Source of the DNA: Escherichia phage vB_EcoM-720R8
DNA: 34,824 nucleotides
Sequence record: ON470606
Strand: one strand, 5' to 3'
A program made the position numbers and the translations under genes. Shown in pieces: positions 1 through 33,063 of this stretch. Within the stretch, counting starts at the first letter, position 1, and every line of letters begins with the position of its first letter. Below the pieces are notes generated by a model that searched no databases, was not told the origin of the DNA, and saw nothing but the letters and a program-made list of their open reading frames with translations.

Positions 1-27
1 AATCTCCCTTACACGGGCTTATTTTTT
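1..27. repeat. attL core (27 bp, AATCTCCCTTACACGGGCTTATTTTTT); matches the P2 att core as I recall it and probably also the 3' terminator end of the host sRNA gene cyaR, truncated by the window edge
   Basis: Exact 27-bp (28 with the following A) direct repeat of 31977..32003; is the reverse complement of the recalled P2 core AAAAAATAAGCCCGTGTAAGGGAGATT. Confidence 0.8.
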
Positions 28-91
28 ACGCGTAATACAATGAAATAAAAGGATTTATTTCTGGTCACGTCCACACATTGACCACATCGAC

Positions 92-117
92 AAAAAAGCC
101 CCTCGACTGAGGGGCTT
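92..117 (-). terminator. Rho-independent terminator downstream of ogr
   Basis: On the minus strand a GC-rich stem (GCCCCTC / GAGGGGC, 4-nt loop) is followed by TTTTTT; lies just 3' of the ogr stop at 129. Confidence 0.55.
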
Positions 118-128
118 CCTGTTTGTAA

Positions 129-347
129 TTACATCCACATAATTTGCTGCCCTGACGGCAACGGGTGCGGTCTTACGGCGTGGACTTCTCCCGGCTTCAC
201 GATGTATCGCTGTACCGACTCATAAGTGATGAACGTGGCGCTGCAATTCACGTTCTGACACTGGTGATAACGCTCTTTTGTCGTGTCAGTGATATAGCGG
301 CTTGTACGCGCATGTGCGGCATGCTGGCATAAAGGACAATGAAACAT
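129..347 (-). CDS. ogr: Ogr, zinc-finger late-gene transcription activator
   Basis: 72-aa product beginning MFHCPLCQHAAHARTSRYITDT with a CxxC...CxxxxC motif; ATG at 345..347. The ORF-track entry 129..410 starts 21 codons upstream; I chose the internal ATG to match Ogr length. Confidence 0.9.
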   Translation of the reverse strand: MFHCPLCQHAAHARTSRYITDTTKERYHQCQNVNCSATFITYESVQRYIVKPGEVHAVRPHPLPSGQQIMWM

Positions 348-428
348 CGCGAGCACCTCTTCCGGTTTTGTTGATGGTGCCATTTTAGTTAATTTATCCT
401 TATAAAACAAACAGATAAAATAAAAACA

Positions 429-1592
429 TCACTCATTATCTTCTGTTTCGTACTCCACATCAGAAAGCCTGACCTCAAGCTCTAAGGACGTCGTGAAGCC
501 GCTATTATTCAGAAAATGTGTCACCTTAGTGATTGTCCAGTCCTGCTCGTCTATGACGCGCTTAAAGCCTGACACTCTGACCGGTGTTTCCGTGTAAATA
601 TCTGCCCGACCGGTAGCCAGGCTGATGGAGAACTCCGCTACGCCCCGTTGCAGTTTATCCCACTTCGCCTGAGCGGCGCGCATGGCCTGCGCTTTCGTGG
701 CATATACCGTAGTCAGGGCAAAAACGTTATCAGCCTCACCGGCCATGTATTCACCTTCGCGCGCTTCCGGTACTTTAGGCGCTTTCTTCTGCCTGACCGG
801 TTTCGCTTTCGGGTGCTCCAGTGCGCGCAGGTGTTTTTCTTTCTTTTTGCGTTTCAGTTTTACCTTCTGCTTTTGCGGCTTCGGGTCTTTGGTGTGTAAC
901 CACTTTGCCGTTACGCCGGTGTAAGCTCCACGGTCAGCAATCGCAAAATGATGACGGTCGCCGTCGCTGCGGGTGATGGTAATCTGCGGGATTTTTTTAC
1001 CGCTGGCCGTCACCCCCTGCCCCGCTTTGAGAAACAGCAGTTTTCCCATTTTTACCGACACCTCACCGCCGTTGCGTTCAGCAAGACGGGTCAGGAATTT
1101 CGCATCAGACTCCTGCGACTGGTCGATGTGCGGGACTTTAATTCCGGCCAGTGACGGAGCGACACTGGCCTCCAGCTTGTTACGGGAGGCTATCGCCTCA
1201 ACAATCGCACCGAGTGTGGTGTCATGCCAGGAGCCTTCCCGGCGGGAATTGAGCGTCCCGCGAAAATCTGCACTCCGGGCGCGGATGGTGACCACATCCG
1301 GCGCGCCCCGGTGTTCTACCTCATCAACGGTGAATTTCCCTTTGCATACCAGGGCAAAACCTTTCCAGCCGATATACACCGTCAGGACAGCGCCACGAAC
1401 CGGCAGCCCGACCTGCCCGTCGGCATCGTTCAGTTCAATATCAAGCTGGTCAGCCTCAAAGCCCCGGCTATCCGTCAGGGTCATACTCATCAGACGGTCG
1501 CTGATATTGCCGGTAATATCCCTGCTGTCGAGCATCAGCATGTAATCCGGCGTCAGCGTACTGCCTGCATCAAATGTCAGTGCATCCAGCAT
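429..1592 (-). CDS. D: Tail protein D (late control gene D)
   Basis: 387-aa ORF, ATG start, stop overlapping the U stop region; position and size match P2 gpD. Confidence 0.85.
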   Translation of the reverse strand: MLDALTFDAGSTLTPDYMLMLDSRDITGNISDRLMSMTLTDSRGFEADQLDIELNDADGQVGLPVRGAVLTVYIGWKGFALVCKGKFTVDEVEHRGAPDVVTIRARSADFRGTLNSRREGSWHDTTLGAIVEAIASRNKLEASVAPSLAGIKVPHIDQSQESDAKFLTRLAERNGGEVSVKMGKLLFLKAGQGVTASGKKIPQITITRSDGDRHHFAIADRGAYTGVTAKWLHTKDPKPQKQKVKLKRKKKEKHLRALEHPKAKPVRQKKAPKVPEAREGEYMAGEADNVFALTTVYATKAQAMRAAQAKWDKLQRGVAEFSISLATGRADIYTETPVRVSGFKRVIDEQDWTITKVTHFLNNSGFTTSLELEVRLSDVEYETEDNE

Positions 1593-2097: not shown

Positions 2098-4545
2098 TTA
2101 ACCGTCATGCATCATGCTGGCACGGGCGCGCGCACGTTTATCCCGCTCGTATTTTTCGAGCGCATCCTGTAACTGGCGGTCGAGCTGTGTCCCCGGCGCA
2201 GTACCACCCGTCAGGCTGATGTGATATTCGTTTTTACTCTGGTCTACATAAGAGCGGCCAGCCGGTGCCGTGACCGGCTGATAAGCCTGATAACCTGCAT
2301 AAGAGCTGGTCGCCGGAATATAACCACCGCTGCCATACGTGGCGGCTTGAGTTCTGGCGGCGGTCTGGTCAAGTGTGTCTGACTCTTTGTTGATAACACC
2401 GAGTTTTTCCAGTACCCAGTCAATACCACTGCGCAGTTTGTTGAACGCATTAAGCGGCAGCATCAGCGCGTCAGCCAGTGCCTGCCCGAACATGACGCCC
2501 GTGTCACGGCAACGGTTCAGGGTGTCCTGGGTGGCTTTGACCGGGGCAATCAGGTTTTTAAACCACTGCCACGCGGCCTGTAACTTTTCACCCAGCCAGT
2601 CAAACACCGGTTTAAGTGGCGTGAACAGTTCCCCCACCGGCGCAAATGCCGCTTTCAGCCCTTCCACCACACCGCCAAAGAATGCGCTGACAGGCTCCCA
2701 GTATTTACGGATAAGCAACGCCCCGGCGACAATGGCGGCCACCACGGCCACAACCGGCCAGCTAATCGCCCCGATGGCGGTTATAACAGCACTGCCAACC
2801 GTCGTGAAGATTGCCCCCATTGCGCCTGCTGCCGCGATGATGGCATTGATGCCGGTGATAACCGGCCAGGCTACAAGACCAATGGCACCGATGACACCAA
2901 TCAGTGCCAGTGCACCACCGACAATGATGCCGATGGTTGACGCCAGTGATTTGTTTTTCTGGATCCAGCCGTCGAGTTTTAACACATACTTTGTGGCCGT
3001 CTGCGTGAGATTACGCAGTGCGCCTTCCTGCTGGTCAAACAGGTCAGTCCCCACCGCCTCATAAGCGGACTGAAACTCCTTAAAGTCACCGCCGAGGTTG
3101 TCCTGCATGATATTTACCAGCTCTGCGGTCTTCCCGTCTGAGGCTTTAAACGCAGCGGTCAGTTTGTCCAGCTTTCCGGTTGAGGCGGCAGTCATCAGCA
3201 CAGCGGCGGCTGAGCTGGCCTCCTCCCCGAAAATGGTTTTCATGTATTCAGCCTGCTGGGCAGTACCGAGCCGGTTTTTCTCAAAACTGGCCTGCATTTC
3301 TTTCAGAATGGTAAATATTGGCCGGGTGTTTCCCTTGCTGTCTGAGGTTTTCACTCCAAGCTCTTTGAGTGCATCCCATGCTTTTCCCGTCGGTGCCTGC
3401 AGGCGGCTTAACACGGCACGGCTTCCCGTCCCCGCCATTGAGCCTGTGATTTTTGCATCATGCAGCGCCCCGACCATTGCGGCGGTTTCTTCAATGCTGA
3501 CACCGGCATTTTTTGCCACAGGTGCGGCATAGGTCAGCGCATCGCTCATGCCGTCAAAATCGGCGGCGGTTTTGTTCATCGTCATGGAGAGAACATCCCC
3601 GATATGAGCGACCTTATCGTTTGAAAGCTGAAAGGCGGATTTCATCCCCATCAGCAGGGCGGCGTTTTCTTCCATCGTGCGGCGGTTCGCCAGCGCCATA
3701 TTCAGCGTGACCGGCGTTGCCGCCTGAATGGCATCAACATCTCCACCGGCTTTCGCAATGATAATCTGTGCACCGGCTGCATCATCTGCCGAGGCTGCGG
3801 TATTGTCGCCGAGCTGGCGCGCCTGCTTGCGTAGCGCGGCCATTTCGGCGGAGTCTTTTGCCACTCCTAGCACGGCCTGCAATTCTGAGTTTTTCTGCGC
3901 AAACTCATAACCGGGCATCAGCAGCTTAACTCCGGCCATCGTTCCCGCCGCCGCAATCCCCACACCGGCAGCGCCTACCGAGGCCATATTTCCGGCCAGT
4001 TCCTTTCCGGCCTGATAACGCTGTTTTACTGCGTTAAGTTTTGCCTGTTGCGCACTGACACGCGCCAGCGCGTCACGCTGACGGTTAAGTTGTGCGGTGG
4101 TTTCACTGATACGGTTTTTCAGTCCCTGCTCATCATGTGCAAGATTGCGGGTATTAATTCCCACAACGGCCAGTTCCCGTTGCTGGCGTTTAACGGAATC
4201 CGTCAGGCGGTTATATTTCGCCTGTAAGTCCTCCGCCGCACGCTTTGCGGATTCCAGCACTTTCGCCTGAGCACGGGTCGGACGTTCGGTGTTTTTAAAC
4301 TGTGTGGCAAGGGCTTCGGCTTCCTGCCGTGCCTTTTCAAGTGCATGACCAGTCACGGCGAGCTGTGCACTGGTCTTGCGGAATCCCTCAATACGGGATG
4401 CGTGACCGTTCAGCTCGCGCAGTGATTTTTGTGTTTCCCGGATATCCCCCGACAGCGATTTGCTCGCTGTACGGATGGATTTAAACGGGCGGGATGCCTG
4501 GTCAACAGCCCTGAGCAATACCTGTAATTTTACATTGTTACTCAT
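2098..4545 (-). CDS. T: Tail tape measure protein T
   Basis: 815-aa ORF with a coiled-coil-rich N-terminal half and a Gly/Ala-rich hydrophobic middle, directly downstream of E/E'. Confidence 0.9.
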   Translation of the reverse strand: MSNNVKLQVLLRAVDQASRPFKSIRTASKSLSGDIRETQKSLRELNGHASRIEGFRKTSAQLAVTGHALEKARQEAEALATQFKNTERPTRAQAKVLESAKRAAEDLQAKYNRLTDSVKRQQRELAVVGINTRNLAHDEQGLKNRISETTAQLNRQRDALARVSAQQAKLNAVKQRYQAGKELAGNMASVGAAGVGIAAAGTMAGVKLLMPGYEFAQKNSELQAVLGVAKDSAEMAALRKQARQLGDNTAASADDAAGAQIIIAKAGGDVDAIQAATPVTLNMALANRRTMEENAALLMGMKSAFQLSNDKVAHIGDVLSMTMNKTAADFDGMSDALTYAAPVAKNAGVSIEETAAMVGALHDAKITGSMAGTGSRAVLSRLQAPTGKAWDALKELGVKTSDSKGNTRPIFTILKEMQASFEKNRLGTAQQAEYMKTIFGEEASSAAAVLMTAASTGKLDKLTAAFKASDGKTAELVNIMQDNLGGDFKEFQSAYEAVGTDLFDQQEGALRNLTQTATKYVLKLDGWIQKNKSLASTIGIIVGGALALIGVIGAIGLVAWPVITGINAIIAAAGAMGAIFTTVGSAVITAIGAISWPVVAVVAAIVAGALLIRKYWEPVSAFFGGVVEGLKAAFAPVGELFTPLKPVFDWLGEKLQAAWQWFKNLIAPVKATQDTLNRCRDTGVMFGQALADALMLPLNAFNKLRSGIDWVLEKLGVINKESDTLDQTAARTQAATYGSGGYIPATSSYAGYQAYQPVTAPAGRSYVDQSKNEYHISLTGGTAPGTQLDRQLQDALEKYERDKRARARASMMHDG

Positions 4546-7017: not shown

Positions 7018-8139
7018 TTAACTTGGTAATAAAGATTGCCACCACTTATTCAAAATGGAATGGGTCATAAAGTTGAATGTATTTAAATTAATTGGCACAT
7101 CTTCATTCAACCACGTTCCACCTAAGGTTGAACATGCTCTCGCTCGTTCAGCAATATACCCATCCCATACTTCAGGATAGGAACACATCGGCTCAGGAAA
7201 TGGTTGTCCTCCATGCAATGCCTTAGAACGGTAGTTATATATTTTTTTAAAAGTTGTTGATAGCGATTCTTTTCCCCAATCAATTCTTCCTACTTTTGGC
7301 CTCACTTGAGGTTCATCTGGAAGGAAATACAGGCAGAAATCCACAAACTTCTTTGTCGCCCCAAATGAATCTTTAAACTCATTAGCAATAATAGAGATTA
7401 AATGTCTAAATTCATTGGTATCTAATTTTTCATATAATTCAGGCTTGGCATGTTTAAATCTTTCTTCTTTAGACGCATTGGATTTTGCCCATTGATTAGC
7501 CGCACATTCTAGGGCTGACACCATCAATAGCCAACTCATATTTGGAGATGACTCGCATATCCATAATGCATTTTGATAGCTTCTGGCTGCTCTAATTAAA
7601 TGGTTGAAATTCTTTTCACTTAAGAGATGTAAATTGTTAAGCTCTTTAAGGTTAGTTATATCAATTTCTTTGATAGCATTAGGAACTATAGGTTTGTTAT
7701 GTTTAAACTCTAAAACGGGAGGAAAAGAACTCTCCGCTTGGATCCTTCCGAAATCACCTGTGTAGTAATCATAGTGACGAGTAATTGACCCAGCATGAAA
7801 ACGGACACCAAGCAGTAAACTTGAAAGCGCAGCTATTTCATCATTATACCATCCACCATGATAATCCTTTGTATGACTCTGAGAACTAGAAAGAATCATA
7901 TTATTTAAGTCACTATACCACTTTGTGCGCACTGTAATTGAAGATGCAACGGTGGATTGTTTGGTTATCCTGGGTAGCATATTCAGAAAACAATAAACTG
8001 AATCATCATCAACCGCCCCAATTGGTTGACTATCTGAATAGAGAGAAAACTCAGTAATAGACCGTAAGTTACTTCCTTGATGTGCCATCTTTAAGTTTTT
8101 GTAAGACAGTAGACTTGCATACATATGATTATTGGGCAT
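7018..8139 (-). CDS. Hypothetical protein, AT-rich accessory (moron) gene at the P2 Z/fun hotspot between G and FI; candidate anti-phage or exclusion function
   Basis: Long uninterrupted ORF in a visibly AT-rich segment flanked by GC-richer phage genes; same orientation as the late genes. The ORF track starts at a GTG (8145); the first ATG is at 8139. No motif I recognise. Confidence 0.6.
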   Translation of the reverse strand: MPNNHMYASLLSYKNLKMAHQGSNLRSITEFSLYSDSQPIGAVDDDSVYCFLNMLPRITKQSTVASSITVRTKWYSDLNNMILSSSQSHTKDYHGGWYNDEIAALSSLLLGVRFHAGSITRHYDYYTGDFGRIQAESSFPPVLEFKHNKPIVPNAIKEIDITNLKELNNLHLLSEKNFNHLIRAARSYQNALWICESSPNMSWLLMVSALECAANQWAKSNASKEERFKHAKPELYEKLDTNEFRHLISIIANEFKDSFGATKKFVDFCLYFLPDEPQVRPKVGRIDWGKESLSTTFKKIYNYRSKALHGGQPFPEPMCSYPEVWDGYIAERARACSTLGGTWLNEDVPINLNTFNFMTHSILNKWWQSLLPS

Positions 8140-23751: not shown

Positions 23752-24693
23752 ATGCAAGGTGAAGTTGACGAACAGCAACCAAATGAGATTATTTCGGAGT
23801 TTGGATACTATCCAGTAGAAGTTAACATTGAGACTGAACAATTTTCTTTGCGTACTTTACCCGGTCTTATTGAGAAAGTGGAACGTATTAACAATGATAA
23901 AAACGTTGTTAATGGTTGGATATACCCTGGGAATCGAAAGGTATATAACCTTAATGGTGACACATGCACAATGCCTTATAGTTACCGAGTATTCGGCATG
24001 CCCAAAACGCACACACTAAAATTAAAAAACACATCCTCGTTAGAAACTCTCAACTTTGTTGTGTGGTGCCTCTCTTTTTTCAAGGGTATAAGATTGACAA
24101 CCACTGACGCTGGTTTTCTTGATGCAACCACTATCAAGCCCACTAAGTTAACCGACTTTATTCTCGTTGGATGCTCTGAAAAAGAAGTAATAGAGCTAGC
24201 ACTTAACTATATAAAAGACAAACAAAAAGATGATCGCTCCATTAAAAGAATAGCTGCGGTGATACACTCCCTATTCCTGTCACATAACCCACTATACCTT
24301 TCCTTTGAGAAATTCCAGTATCTTTATATGGCTCTTGATTGCTGTTTTGCTATAGCATGGGATGAAAGGGATAAAGTCATTAAAGAGAAAAAACCATCTC
24401 ATCAAAATAGAGTATATTGGACGTGCGAAAATTACGGTGTAAAAATCCCGTCATGGGCAACAGATGAATGTAATGTTTCAGTTATACGCAATGATAATTT
24501 TCATGAAGCCATTTTTAATGGGCAACCGCTTGGTTTCTCTAGTATCAATGATTGTCAATATGGTAGCGATATATTGCTACAAATGCAGGCTCTGGTATGT
24601 CGTCTACTAGCGGCAATACTCTCTGTAAATGATCGTAAATATATCGCATCTACAATCAGCTCGATAGAGTACCATTCATTAAAATTAACTTAA
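23752..24693 (+). CDS. Hypothetical protein (313 aa), AT-rich accessory gene next to cos at the P2 old/tin hotspot; candidate defence or exclusion gene
   Basis: ATG at 23752 preceded by GGAG at 23742..23745; AT-rich; no Walker A motif, so not an OLD-family ATPase; no family recognised. Confidence 0.6.
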   Translation: MQGEVDEQQPNEIISEFGYYPVEVNIETEQFSLRTLPGLIEKVERINNDKNVVNGWIYPGNRKVYNLNGDTCTMPYSYRVFGMPKTHTLKLKNTSSLETLNFVVWCLSFFKGIRLTTTDAGFLDATTIKPTKLTDFILVGCSEKEVIELALNYIKDKQKDDRSIKRIAAVIHSLFLSHNPLYLSFEKFQYLYMALDCCFAIAWDERDKVIKEKKPSHQNRVYWTCENYGVKIPSWATDECNVSVIRNDNFHEAIFNGQPLGFSSINDCQYGSDILLQMQALVCRLLAAILSVNDRKYIASTISSIEYHSLKLT

Positions 24694-25012: not shown

Positions 25013-25693
25013 CTACATCTTTATTGCATATTTATTAAAAGACGCCCAGTTCAATAAAAAAACATTATTCATATACCATTCAATATGATTTTTATTTTTA
25101 GATTGACTGTCAAGTAGCACACAAACATCAACCTGTTTATCAATCAATTTTGCAATATAAACCACAAACTCAACACTCGAATATCTCTTTGTGCCTAGCA
25201 AATATAATATTTCATCTGACAAATAATTAGACTCATGTGAAAAGACATTATCATTTAACAAAATCAACCCGCCAATCGAGTCATTTAAATCCAAAACATC
25301 CTTTGTTGCATTTATTTGCTTATTAGCTTCCTTAACTATCTTTGTTTTAATATTTTCATAAGCAAAGTTCATTATATCATTTCTAAATCGCTTTGAGTCT
25401 GGGTGTCTTTTTATCAACTCTTCTAAATGAATAGCACCATGCCAGTTTTTTGCAAGCCAACTATCAGTTTTAACCAACTCATTCAGTTTATCATTGACAT
25501 TCTTGACCCTGTCAGAAAAAAGACTTTTCATCTCCAAAATTATCTTTTTATTATCAATAAGATAATCTGCCATCTTGCGATTCTGACCATCCTTCATCCG
25601 GAACTTATGATGAATATCATCAATAGAAATCCCTTTTTCATGCTCAACAATGAATCTCTTAACATTGTTTTCTAATTCGCTGTATTGTTTCAT
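25013..25693 (-). CDS. Hypothetical protein (226 aa), AT-rich accessory gene at the P2 tin position; candidate defence or exclusion gene
   Basis: ATG at 25691..25693 with a purine-rich stretch upstream; 27 nt downstream of the DUF2158-like ORF on the same strand; no family recognised. Confidence 0.6.
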   Translation of the reverse strand: MKQYSELENNVKRFIVEHEKGISIDDIHHKFRMKDGQNRKMADYLIDNKKIILEMKSLFSDRVKNVNDKLNELVKTDSWLAKNWHGAIHLEELIKRHPDSKRFRNDIMNFAYENIKTKIVKEANKQINATKDVLDLNDSIGGLILLNDNVFSHESNYLSDEILYLLGTKRYSSVEFVVYIAKLIDKQVDVCVLLDSQSKNKNHIEWYMNNVFLLNWASFNKYAIKM

Positions 25694-30883: not shown

Positions 30884-31897
30884 ATGGCAATCAAAAAACT
30901 CGATGATGGTCGATATGAAGTGGACATCCGCCCTACTGGACGTAACGGAAAACGCATCCGTAGGAAGTTTGATAAGAAAAGCGAAGCTGTCGCTTTCGAA
31001 AAATACACGTTGTACAACCACCACAATAAAGAATGGCTATCAAAACCAACAGACAAACGACGTCTGTCGGAACTGACACAGATCTGGTGGGATTTAAAGG
31101 GTAAACACGAAGAGCATGGGAAATCTAATCTTGGAAAAATTGAAATCTTCACAAAAATAACGAATGACCCATGCGCATTTCAAATCACGAAATCCCTTAT
31201 CAGCCAGTACTGCGCCACCCGAAGAAGTCAGGGTATTAAACCTTCGAGTATCAATCGTGATTTAACATGTATTAGCGGCATGTTTACAGCCCTGATTGAA
31301 GCGGAGTTATTCTTTGGTGAGCACCCTATCAGAGGGACAAAGAGGCTTAAGGAGGAAAAACCAGAAACAGGCTATCTCACACAGGAAGAAATTGCCTTAC
31401 TGCTTGCAGCACTTGACGGCGACAACAAAAAGATTGCGATTCTTTGCCTGAGTACAGGAGCACGTTGGGGAGAAGCAGCTCGTTTGAAAGCAGAAAATAT
31501 CATCCATAACCGCGTCACGTTTGTTAAAACGAAAACAAACAAACCACGCACCGTCCCGATCTCAGAGGCTGTTGCCAAAATGATCGCGGATAACAAACGA
31601 GGTTTTTTATTCCCTGATGCTGATTACCCTCGCTTCAGACGAACAATGAAAGCAATAAAACCGGATTTGCCAATGGGGCAAGCCACACATGCACTAAGGC
31701 ACAGCTTTGCCACTCATTTCATGATTAATGGAGGAAGTATTATCACGCTACAACGGATACTAGGTCACACGCGGATTGAGCAAACTATGGTTTACGCTCA
31801 TTTTGCGCCAGAGTACCTTCAGGACGCCATTTCTCTTAATCCGCTAAGAGGTGGTACTGAGGCCGAGAGTGTCCACACAGTGTCCACAGTAGAGTAA
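30884..31897 (+). CDS. int: Tyrosine integrase
   Basis: 337-aa ORF, GGAGGG upstream; C-terminal catalytic region with HALRHSFATHF...LGHTRIEQTMVYAHF (R, H-x-x-R and Y). Confidence 0.9.
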   Translation: MAIKKLDDGRYEVDIRPTGRNGKRIRRKFDKKSEAVAFEKYTLYNHHNKEWLSKPTDKRRLSELTQIWWDLKGKHEEHGKSNLGKIEIFTKITNDPCAFQITKSLISQYCATRRSQGIKPSSINRDLTCISGMFTALIEAELFFGEHPIRGTKRLKEEKPETGYLTQEEIALLLAALDGDNKKIAILCLSTGARWGEAARLKAENIIHNRVTFVKTKTNKPRTVPISEAVAKMIADNKRGFLFPDADYPRFRRTMKAIKPDLPMGQATHALRHSFATHFMINGGSIITLQRILGHTRIEQTMVYAHFAPEYLQDAISLNPLRGGTEAESVHTVSTVE

Positions 31898-31976
31898 CGT
31901 TTAAGGGCTTTCAGTGGTAATTTATGCCGCTCAAACCCGCATTGTACCGTTGAAAGCCCCTACTGGTGACACCCTA

Positions 31977-32003
31977 AATCTCCCTTACACGGGCTTATTT
32001 TTT
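31977..32003. repeat. attR core (27 bp), identical to 1..27
   Basis: Exact direct repeat; phage int lies to its left and host DNA to its right. Confidence 0.8.
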
Positions 32004-32331
32004 ATGCATAAGCCCTATCCCTGGTCACCGTCTTCCATTGACCACATCGATAGAATCTCCCTTAATAGCACGATGCCTTTCACTTATCGACATCGTGCTC
32101 GCACAGGTTCCGGTTACGCACAGCCAGAACGCGCATGTTTGACGCTTACCAAAAAATGAACCTAAAGCATTGGAATATTTTTGACATCATTTTCTGATGG
32201 CTGCATAAAATAAAAATTCTGCTTTAGTTTCATCTATCTGTTTGTCATTATTACTCACATTCAATAATGGTGTTGAAGAATATCCCATCACAGATAAAAT
32301 AAATATGTGCATGGTAGTCTTGAATCTATTC

Positions 32332-32649
32332 TCACTCTCCACATTTGAATGTCAGACGAGCAACGCCATGTAATCCTGCACCTTCTGTCTTCAGGTCAAC
32401 TATCTGCATTTTTTTGCCCTGAGTAACACAGAAATGAGTTGCATCATTTTTTACTATATTTTCTGCACCAGATATTCTACCCCTGGCTAAAGAAGCTTCG
32501 GCTTCGGTGTAGTATTGGTTATCGAGTTTACGCTGAATATTACTTTTATATGCAAGGCCAAATTTACCGATACTTGTCTCATCATTATGCACAGCACAAC
32601 CAGACATAAGAAAAACACTAATTAATGATATAGCAGCTATCTTTTTCAT
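32332..32649 (-). CDS. yegR: Host lipoprotein YegR
   Basis: 105-aa product from the internal ATG (MKKIAAISLISVFLMSGCAV...) with a lipobox; matches E. coli YegR by recall. Confidence 0.65.
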   Translation of the reverse strand: MKKIAAISLISVFLMSGCAVHNDETSIGKFGLAYKSNIQRKLDNQYYTEAEASLARGRISGAENIVKNDATHFCVTQGKKMQIVDLKTEGAGLHGVARLTFKCGE

Positions 32650-33063
32650 CTCACCTTCCCCCATTAATTACCAACGACACGCTCTGGTGTTTAAATATAA
32701 TAATGGCATGATTATTATAATTGAATAGGATTATAATAAATGTTCTGTACAACATTTCCTACATAAGTAGGAATTACAGACATAGAGGCCCTTCCGGGTA
32801 ACCCCATGGGGGACTTTAATATATTTTGAATAGTATATTGAAGATGCCACTGTTTAGTTGAATATTAGGTATATTCTCTTTTTTAAAATTTATCAGTGGC
32901 TACCGTTAATATTCGCTGTCCCCATTGTAAGGTCCTGGTGGTAAGCACTGAATCCCCATACCTGAACTGACTTTTTATCCTCCGACTTTCATCCTGTTCT
33001 GACTCCACCTTTTCTTTTCTGCTCTACACTATCTACAGACCAATCATAAAGGCACATACGATC

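Follow-up and report, generated by a model that had tools for sequence, protein, structure and literature searches.

The ogr-side junction of a P2 prophage at the E. coli cyaR terminator and a probable fossil P arm in the adjoining host DNA

The DNA considered here is a stretch of 34,824 nt of Escherichia phage vB_EcoM-720R8 (record ON470606), read on one strand from 5' to 3' and called the window throughout. It begins with a 28-bp core, AATCTCCCTTACACGGGCTTATTTTTTA, which occupies 1..28 and returns at 31977..32004 on the same (plus) strand, with 28 of 28 positions identical. The two copies bound the prophage, and the left one is truncated by the first base of the window. A shared core had been noticed in the first-pass annotation of this DNA; the sharing stands, but its length in the window is 28 bp and not the 27 bp given there. 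Next to the left core lies ogr, the gene for the late-gene activator (129..347, minus strand; Pfam PF04606 Ogr_Delta, E = 2e-21, and P2 annotation). Ahead of the right core lies int, which encodes a tyrosine integrase (30884..31897, plus strand). From 31977 onward the window is host DNA, with yegR, yegS and a DeoR/GatR regulator.

Two cargo ORFs lie between the portal and replication genes, at 23752..24693 (plus strand, 313 aa) and 25013..25693 (minus strand, 226 aa), in the position of the tin/old cargo of P2. Neither has a match in Pfam or PADLOC. The block reaches at least 80% query coverage in only 27 of 5426 E. coli genomes, and it may be an accessory or defence module, as yet uncharacterised.

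Over positions 1..430 the window agrees with phage P2 at 97% identity and with further Peduovirus genomes at 99.5%. The integrase, with the Pfam domains PF24624 Int_N and PF00589, agrees with P2 Int at 337 of 337 residues, and the 121 bases upstream of the int-side core, which hold the P' arm repeats and the Cox region, are identical to P2 as well. Because the Int protein, the P' arm and the Cox region are the same, the experimental map of P2 applies directly. We placed the sites for Int, IHF and Cox by mapping the protein_bind features of the P2 GenBank record (L001, whose coordinates are given in brackets below) by homology. Binding of the three proteins at the window sites is predicted by analogy, from P2 experiments by way of that annotation.

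In the CyaR terminator the core at 1..28 accounts for loop, 3' stem arm and U-tract; the attP core annotated in the P2 record (27 bp) corresponds to 1..27. The putative IHF-protected segment of the P arm follows at 26..59 (L001 1526-1559) and differs from P2 by several substitutions between 30 and 41. The predicted arm-type Int site of the P arm, at 63..90 (L001 1563-1590, 'P arm'), is identical in sequence to P2 and contains two direct repeats, GTCCACA at 69..75 and TGACCACA at 79..86. A Rho-independent terminator of the ogr/F operon is annotated in P2 at L001 1595-1618, which is 95..118 (minus strand) in the window, and in the lysogen L007 there is a terminator-like hairpin at the corresponding place. 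At the other end, the arm-type Int site of the P' arm lies at 31863..31889 (L001 1387-1413, identical sequence) and contains the repeat TGTCCACA twice, at 31870 and 31881. It is followed at 31887..31960 by the binding region for Cox, the excision directionality factor (L001 1411-1484, identical sequence), and then by the int-side core. Arm-type direct repeats are thereby present on both sides of the core. The consensus of P2-type arm repeats is tgTGGaCa, or tGtCCAca in reverse complement (PMC3448106), and the P-arm repeats are variants of it. The IHF and Cox sites take positions homologous to those of P2; by sequence comparison the Cox region is identical and the IHF spacer is substituted. Every class of P2 site (core, IHF, Int arms, Cox) is present, and all except the IHF spacer are identical to P2.

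In the nomenclature of P2 the junction at the left of the window is attR (P-O-B') and that at the right is attL (B-O-P'), so the left junction is not an attL, and the first-pass annotation is corrected in this. The likeness to P2 attP and attB at locI consists of an Int that is 100% identical, of an identical core, P' arm and Int P-arm site, of the order ogr-P arm-core and core-P' arm-int, and of the chromosomal site. The differences are the IHF-spacer substitutions (30..41), a segment of identity with the host of 28 bp against the annotated 27, and the cargo region. The attachment site, the layout of its protein-binding sites and the fact that it overlaps cyaR were known before, and both the site and the mechanism are textbook matter.

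The small RNA gene cyaR is what the core belongs to on the host side. Window positions 1..24 match positions 62-85 of RF00112 (CyaR_RyeE), cut at the 5' end, with 23.3 bits, the best match among all Rfam families. At the gathering threshold the Rfam scan of the window returned no family; the threshold of RF00112 is 47 bits, and the body of cyaR is outside the window. Full-length CyaR, scoring 100.7 bits and ending in the core, is found in the lysogens L007 and L006, which have the left arm of the window, at the empty site L002 and in K-12 (L004). Two complete genomes have a P2-like prophage at this place, and in both the core is preceded by 60 bases of cyaR body (...AGGAACCACCTCCTTAGCCTGTGT); the first 140 bases of the window occur unchanged in one of the two. 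It is such near-identical lysogens, rather than the source strain itself, that suggest cyaR ahead of position 1.

The CyaR terminator folds into an 11-bp stem with a 6-nt loop and a U-tail, in the lysogen as at the empty site. Of this structure the core makes up the loop UCUCCC, the complete 3' arm and the U-tract, but just the final 2 nt of the 5' arm. The proposed match of the core to the 3' terminator end of cyaR is hence borne out by both the Rfam match and the full-length genes, while the further idea that the core doubles as the terminator holds for the 3' half and not for the whole, as only 2 nt of the 5' arm are included. Integration swaps the 3' half of the terminator for an identical phage copy, and so cyaR is unchanged. 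Among P2 insertion sites the genome paper of E. coli W names 'cyaR RNA', and for K-12 it gives 'ogr-D'' there (PMC3032704).

Beyond the core, CTGGTCAC occurs at 61..68 and at 32021..32028, and CATTGACCACATCGA at 76..90 and at 32036..32050. Together they form the composite CTGGTCAC-N7-CATTGACCACATCGA at 61..90 and 32021..32050. The gap of 7 nt between the motifs is the same in both copies, whereas CTGGTCAC begins after a gap of 32 nt from the left core and of 16 nt from the right core. Recurrence of the left phage-arm motifs in the right host flank, at a different spacing from the core, had been the central observation of the first-pass annotation, and we confirm both parts of it. Its coordinates 61..68 are right as well; the other three (77..91, 32022..32029 and 32037..32051) have to be lowered by one base each. 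On the left, the motifs at 61..68 and 76..90 flank and overlap the two P-arm direct repeats.

The recurrence is not due to chance. With up to 2 mismatches the 15-mer CATTGACCACATCGA is observed twice, against 0.15 expected per window, and with up to 3 mismatches the composite 30-nt pattern is observed twice, against 0.00 expected from shuffles. Local alignment of 29..128 with 32005..32104 gives a score of 38. In 2000 shuffles the score was 13.7 +/- 2.1 and never reached 38, and other pieces of the host flank scored at most 18 in the same local alignment.

The block at the right, 32005..32050 on the plus strand, consists of 16 nt (TGCATAAGCCCTATCC) followed by CTGGTCACCGTCTTCCATTGACCACATCGA. 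It adjoins the core, has the orientation of the live P arm and is significantly similar to it, with 23 of 30 positions identical in an ungapped alignment and about 27 of 31 with gaps. Compared with live P arms it has a 16-nt deletion within the IHF segment. Its first arm repeat is degraded (CGTCTTC as against CGTCCACA) and its second repeat, TGACCACA, is intact; TGACCA is invariant across all 7 aligned arm sequences. Strain SA186, which has no prophage here, passes from the cyaR core directly into TGCATAAGCCCTATCC CTGGTCACCGTCTTCCATTGACCACATCGA TAG AATCTCCCTTA...

We counted the possible junctions in 5426 complete E. coli genomes. cyaR, core and the block are contiguous, with nothing inserted, in 4218 of them; 817 have the junction P'-core-block, and 1167 have the junction cyaR-core-P arm-ogr. 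About 98% of E. coli genomes have the block. Its region diverges by 5-10% among E. coli, most genomes falling in a band of 90-95% identity. In other Enterobacteriaceae, where the locus is uninterrupted, yegS comes directly after cyaR and the block is absent. The earlier suggestion that the host site was already phage-derived when the present prophage entered is upheld by these counts, by this absence, and by the alignment of the block to the P arm of P2.

Compared by BLAST with 50,697 phage records, the block and the adjoining 910 bp on its right matched through the core only, except in AY639599. This record, 'Phage TP', was rejected as a phage carrier of the block, being a K-12-like chromosomal fragment instead (yegQ, ogr). 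A 25-mer of the block has 73 matches in IMG/VR, and none of these adjoins ogr. All are prophage/host junctions of the type P'-core-block, nearly all lie no more than a few hundred bases from where the sequence ends, and they are prophage calls that overrun into host DNA. Conservation over these 73 junction loci says nothing about the motif itself, as the loci had been picked by it. In 4 of the 73 int-side junctions the 7 bases to the right of the core are the phage-type CGCGTAA and not the host TGCATAA, and the block then follows. Either the exchange extends past the 28-bp core in these cases, or the host site is polymorphic.

We consider it well supported, at a probability of roughly 0.85 for the two statements taken jointly, that 1..128 is the ogr-side junction (attR) of a P2 prophage at locI, set in the 3' half of the cyaR terminator, and that the right-hand copy is a fossil P2-like P arm, near-fixed host DNA outside the present prophage. 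The phage origin of the fossil is argued from the 23 of 30 identities, the position and the orientation; the searches above found no extant phage with an arm of the fossil type.

K-12 has its own prophage remnant at this locus. The gene order in RefSeq is cyaR, cryptic prophage PR-X, ogrK, yegZ, yegR, yegS, and PR-X starts inside the 3' end of cyaR. The right flank of the window reads yegR-yegS-gatR, and the proposed identification of the locus with the ogrK/yegZ site of K-12 is correct. Comparison of the window edges with K-12 and P2, which had been proposed as a check, gives the same order of genes, and the motifs of the right flank align to the P2 P arm. PR-X and the window share the locus and the cyaR-core-P arm-ogr junction, identical over the first ~128 bp but for one base. 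PR-X, however, has been reduced to ogr and part of D, fused to a truncated core, whereas the window holds a complete 32-kb prophage. It has a full D (429..1592), all late and early genes and int, and is not of the PR-X type.

The right boundary of PR-X in K-12 (L004 2812..2832) is a deletion that brings the D fragment (yegZ) up against position 10 of the int-side core. At this junction …CTCTGC is joined to TACACGGGCTTATTTTTTTA, and the core there has lost its first 9 nt. Junctions of the K-12 type (yegZ', truncated core, fossil) occur in 358 of the 5426 complete E. coli genomes. In K-12 the order is PR-X, truncated core, fossil arm. As the fossil block follows the truncated core of PR-X, and is found to the right of both PR-X and the prophage of the window, it is older than PR-X and independent of it. 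The first-pass annotation was therefore right in calling the host site phage-derived, with the correction that the phage-derived part is not the ogrK/yegZ remnant, to the right of which the fossil lies in K-12 as an older layer. The K-12 record has PR-X end at 2167811, ahead of the fossil layers, and these carry no annotation as phage-derived.

Further layers lie between the fossil and yegS. Three nucleotides past the fossil arm there is a partial second core, AATCTCCCTTA (32054..32064, plus strand), equal to positions 1-11 of the core. It is 10-11 nt long, reading AATCTCCCTTC in most E. coli and AATCCTCCTTC in K-12. A simple calculation puts the expected number of exact 11-mers that are in register with the core's start at about 5e-4 in ~950 bp, both strands included. 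A perfect 9-bp hairpin, AGCACGATG-N15-CATCGTGCT, lies at 32067..32099 with a fold z-score of -2.96; it is not terminator-like and has no T-tract. Just downstream of yegR, a 170-bp AT-rich stretch (32158..32327) is missing in K-12, where ...CAAAAAAT meets ATTCTCACTCTCC.

A decayed third core, GAATCCCCATACCTGAACTGACTTTTTA, is found at 32950..32977 (plus strand), about 945 bp farther on. It agrees with the core at 19 of 28 positions with one gap, and in K-12 at 19 of 28 with none. In the MAFFT alignment it reads AATC-CCCATACCTGAACTGACTTTTTA, or AATCCTCCATACTTGAACTGACTTTTTA in K-12, and falls at the cyaR terminator of 11 other Enterobacteriaceae, in register with it. None of 5000 shuffles reaches its score; when the T-run is left out, none of 5000 does so for the window and 7 of 5000 for K-12. 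Folding finds no hairpin left at 32950..32977, and the DNA to its left has no significant similarity to the P' arm (1237 of 3000 shuffles score as well). The third core abuts the ancestral upstream block of yegS (32978..33063, plus strand), a stretch whose homologue comes directly after the cyaR U-tract in other Enterobacteriaceae.

A scan of one genome per species with a CyaR seed, a 15-mer that also matches unrelated phyla, gave at least 43 true cyaR loci in Enterobacterales, from a sample that excludes Escherichia and Salmonella outgroups. Among the matches listed, yegQ is upstream of cyaR in 43 of 43 and yegS downstream in 37 of 43. In most of the Enterobacteriaceae listed, yegS starts about 75-90 nt past the U-tract; in E. 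coli it starts ~980 nt farther. Since the third core lies just ahead of the conserved promoter block of yegS, the entire spacer from cyaR to yegS in E. coli (~950 bp), yegR included, looks like the residue of earlier insertions. On the simplest reading the stack runs as follows: cyaR with the live core, the prophage where there is one, a copy of the core, the fossil arm, a core stub, ~880 bp with yegR, the decayed core, and the yegS promoter. The fossil arm and the stacked core copies seem to be unannotated in the records compared, which is a small detail.

The gene yegR itself (32332..32649, minus strand), small and lipoprotein-like, lies inside the old insertion. YegR is found essentially only in Escherichia and Shigella, and the few distant homologues it has are flanked by IS elements or have unrelated surroundings, as would be expected for acquired DNA. 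The Pfam-A scan assigned it to no family, and precomputed annotation gives PF27694 YegR. In PHROGs it has one strong match, phrog_21109. We rejected the possibility that yegR is a phage gene, as phrog_21109 probably derives from overrun prophage calls. A 'homologue' with 78% identity to YegR (L128) was likewise rejected as an outgroup; it is an error-rich E. coli assembly instead. AY639599.1 contains yegQ, cyaR, ogr and the fossil, and PHROG 21109 is YegR. Both look like host DNA that was filed as phage, the prophage boundaries having been set beyond the att core.

Insertions between cyaR and yegS have occurred independently in other genera (loci L022, L102, L109, L048, L056, L091 and L124). 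The stretches concerned are at 7593..7900 in L022, at 3434..3980 in L102 and at 2400..3068 (minus strand) in L109. A remnant in Citrobacter has a P arm, an ogr terminator and an apparent stub of the 3' end of ogr. An Enterobacter-like MAG carries a ~240-bp insert with a P-arm-like block, and Pseudescherichia an insert of ~430 bp flanked by a 15-nt repeat of the terminator 3' end, CAGGCCTATTTTTTT. In Kluyvera and Enterobacter the inserts between cyaR and yegS are larger. In the Enterobacteriaceae at large the cyaR 3' end is a hotspot of integration.

We know other RNA genes whose ends are used in this way. At the sdsR locus the 3' end of an RNA gene has been reused and decaying copies of the core have been pushed downstream (PMC3333887), and rybB is listed together with cyaR among the P2 sites (PMC3032704). 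What cyaR shares with the hotspots at tRNA, tmRNA, sdsR/ryeB and rybB genes is repeated reuse of the 3' end, each insertion restoring the gene. It differs in how little is left of the older layers: an arm of ~50 bp, a core stub of 11 nt and a core copy with 19 of 28 positions.

Tyrosine integrases of the heterobivalent kind bind the core with their central and catalytic domains and the arm repeats with the N-terminal domain. In P2, IHF bends the P arm so that Int bridges arm and core, and Cox, beside the P' arm, directs excision. By analogy with the P2 annotation, the N-terminal domain of Int would bind the P-arm repeats GTCCACA and TGACCACA, IHF would bend the 32-nt spacer, and one Int molecule would bridge arm and core. 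Strands would be exchanged within the 28-bp core, and cyaR would be rebuilt unchanged, since loop, 3' arm and U-tract of its terminator are carried by the phage as well. The history of the site may have been as follows. An older P2-like prophage sat at the cyaR core and was deleted almost wholly, so that a fossil P arm remained, and the present phage then re-integrated into the intact core to the left of that arm. With a core fragment 3 nt past the fossil and a decayed third core beside the yegS promoter, the count of layers suggests at least two insertions at the cyaR site before the present prophage.

It might be asked if the fossil is still of use. A single arm-type Int site 36-59 bp from the attB core could recruit or hold Int, and this would favour locI as a P2 site or bias integration against excision. 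If so, locI would be the top of a stack of fossil att sites whose half-site still binds Int, and the half-site would add to the preference of P2 for locI or to its low spontaneous excision. The second repeat, TGACCACA, is indeed intact with its flanks (CATTGACCACATCGA) in the window, in K-12 and at the empty site despite variable neighbours, and the block is found in some 98% of E. coli genomes. We nevertheless regard a functional arm as unlikely. One repeat and the IHF segment are gone, and P2 Int binds arm sites cooperatively as pairs. The divergence of 5-10% in this region is high for the species, and other genera have unrelated insertions at the corresponding place. The loss of 16 bp of the IHF spacer and of one of the two arm repeats, together with this variability, means that the fossil is most likely inert, a neutral remnant that would neither help nor hinder the resident phage.

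The direction of transfer could also be reversed. If the block were ancestral host DNA, captured by an ancestor of P2 through imprecise excision, then the P arm of the phage would be host-derived, and P arm and block would lie on one side of the core in a shared orientation just as they do. This is even less probable. A short spacer is found in 14 other Enterobacteriaceae, and there the cyaR U-tract is followed directly by the yegS promoter, with no such block between them. The repeat of the arm agrees with those of the P' arm and with the consensus for P2-type phages whose integration sites are elsewhere, and there is a decayed core past the block, as insertion predicts. That the right-hand motifs belong to the resident prophage, its true end lying past 32004, or that they match by chance, has nothing in its favour beyond their closeness to the prophage end and can be regarded as already refuted. 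The block is contiguous with cyaR in the 4218 prophage-free genomes, the chance expectation is 0.00, and the IMG/VR matches, 73 of 73, are P'-core-block junctions reached by prophage calls that overrun.

A fossil P arm of phage origin, lying in host DNA, accordingly remains our preferred reading, and its practical value is mainly in annotation. The exact boundaries of the prophage are 1 and 32004, and prophage callers overrun the latter, host flank being included in all 73 of the IMG/VR matches. For E. coli itself, lysogeny at this site leaves cyaR unchanged, and the ~950 bp up to the yegS promoter would be old inserted DNA. For the biology of these phages and their hosts, cyaR is one more small RNA whose 3' end has been used repeatedly for phage integration.
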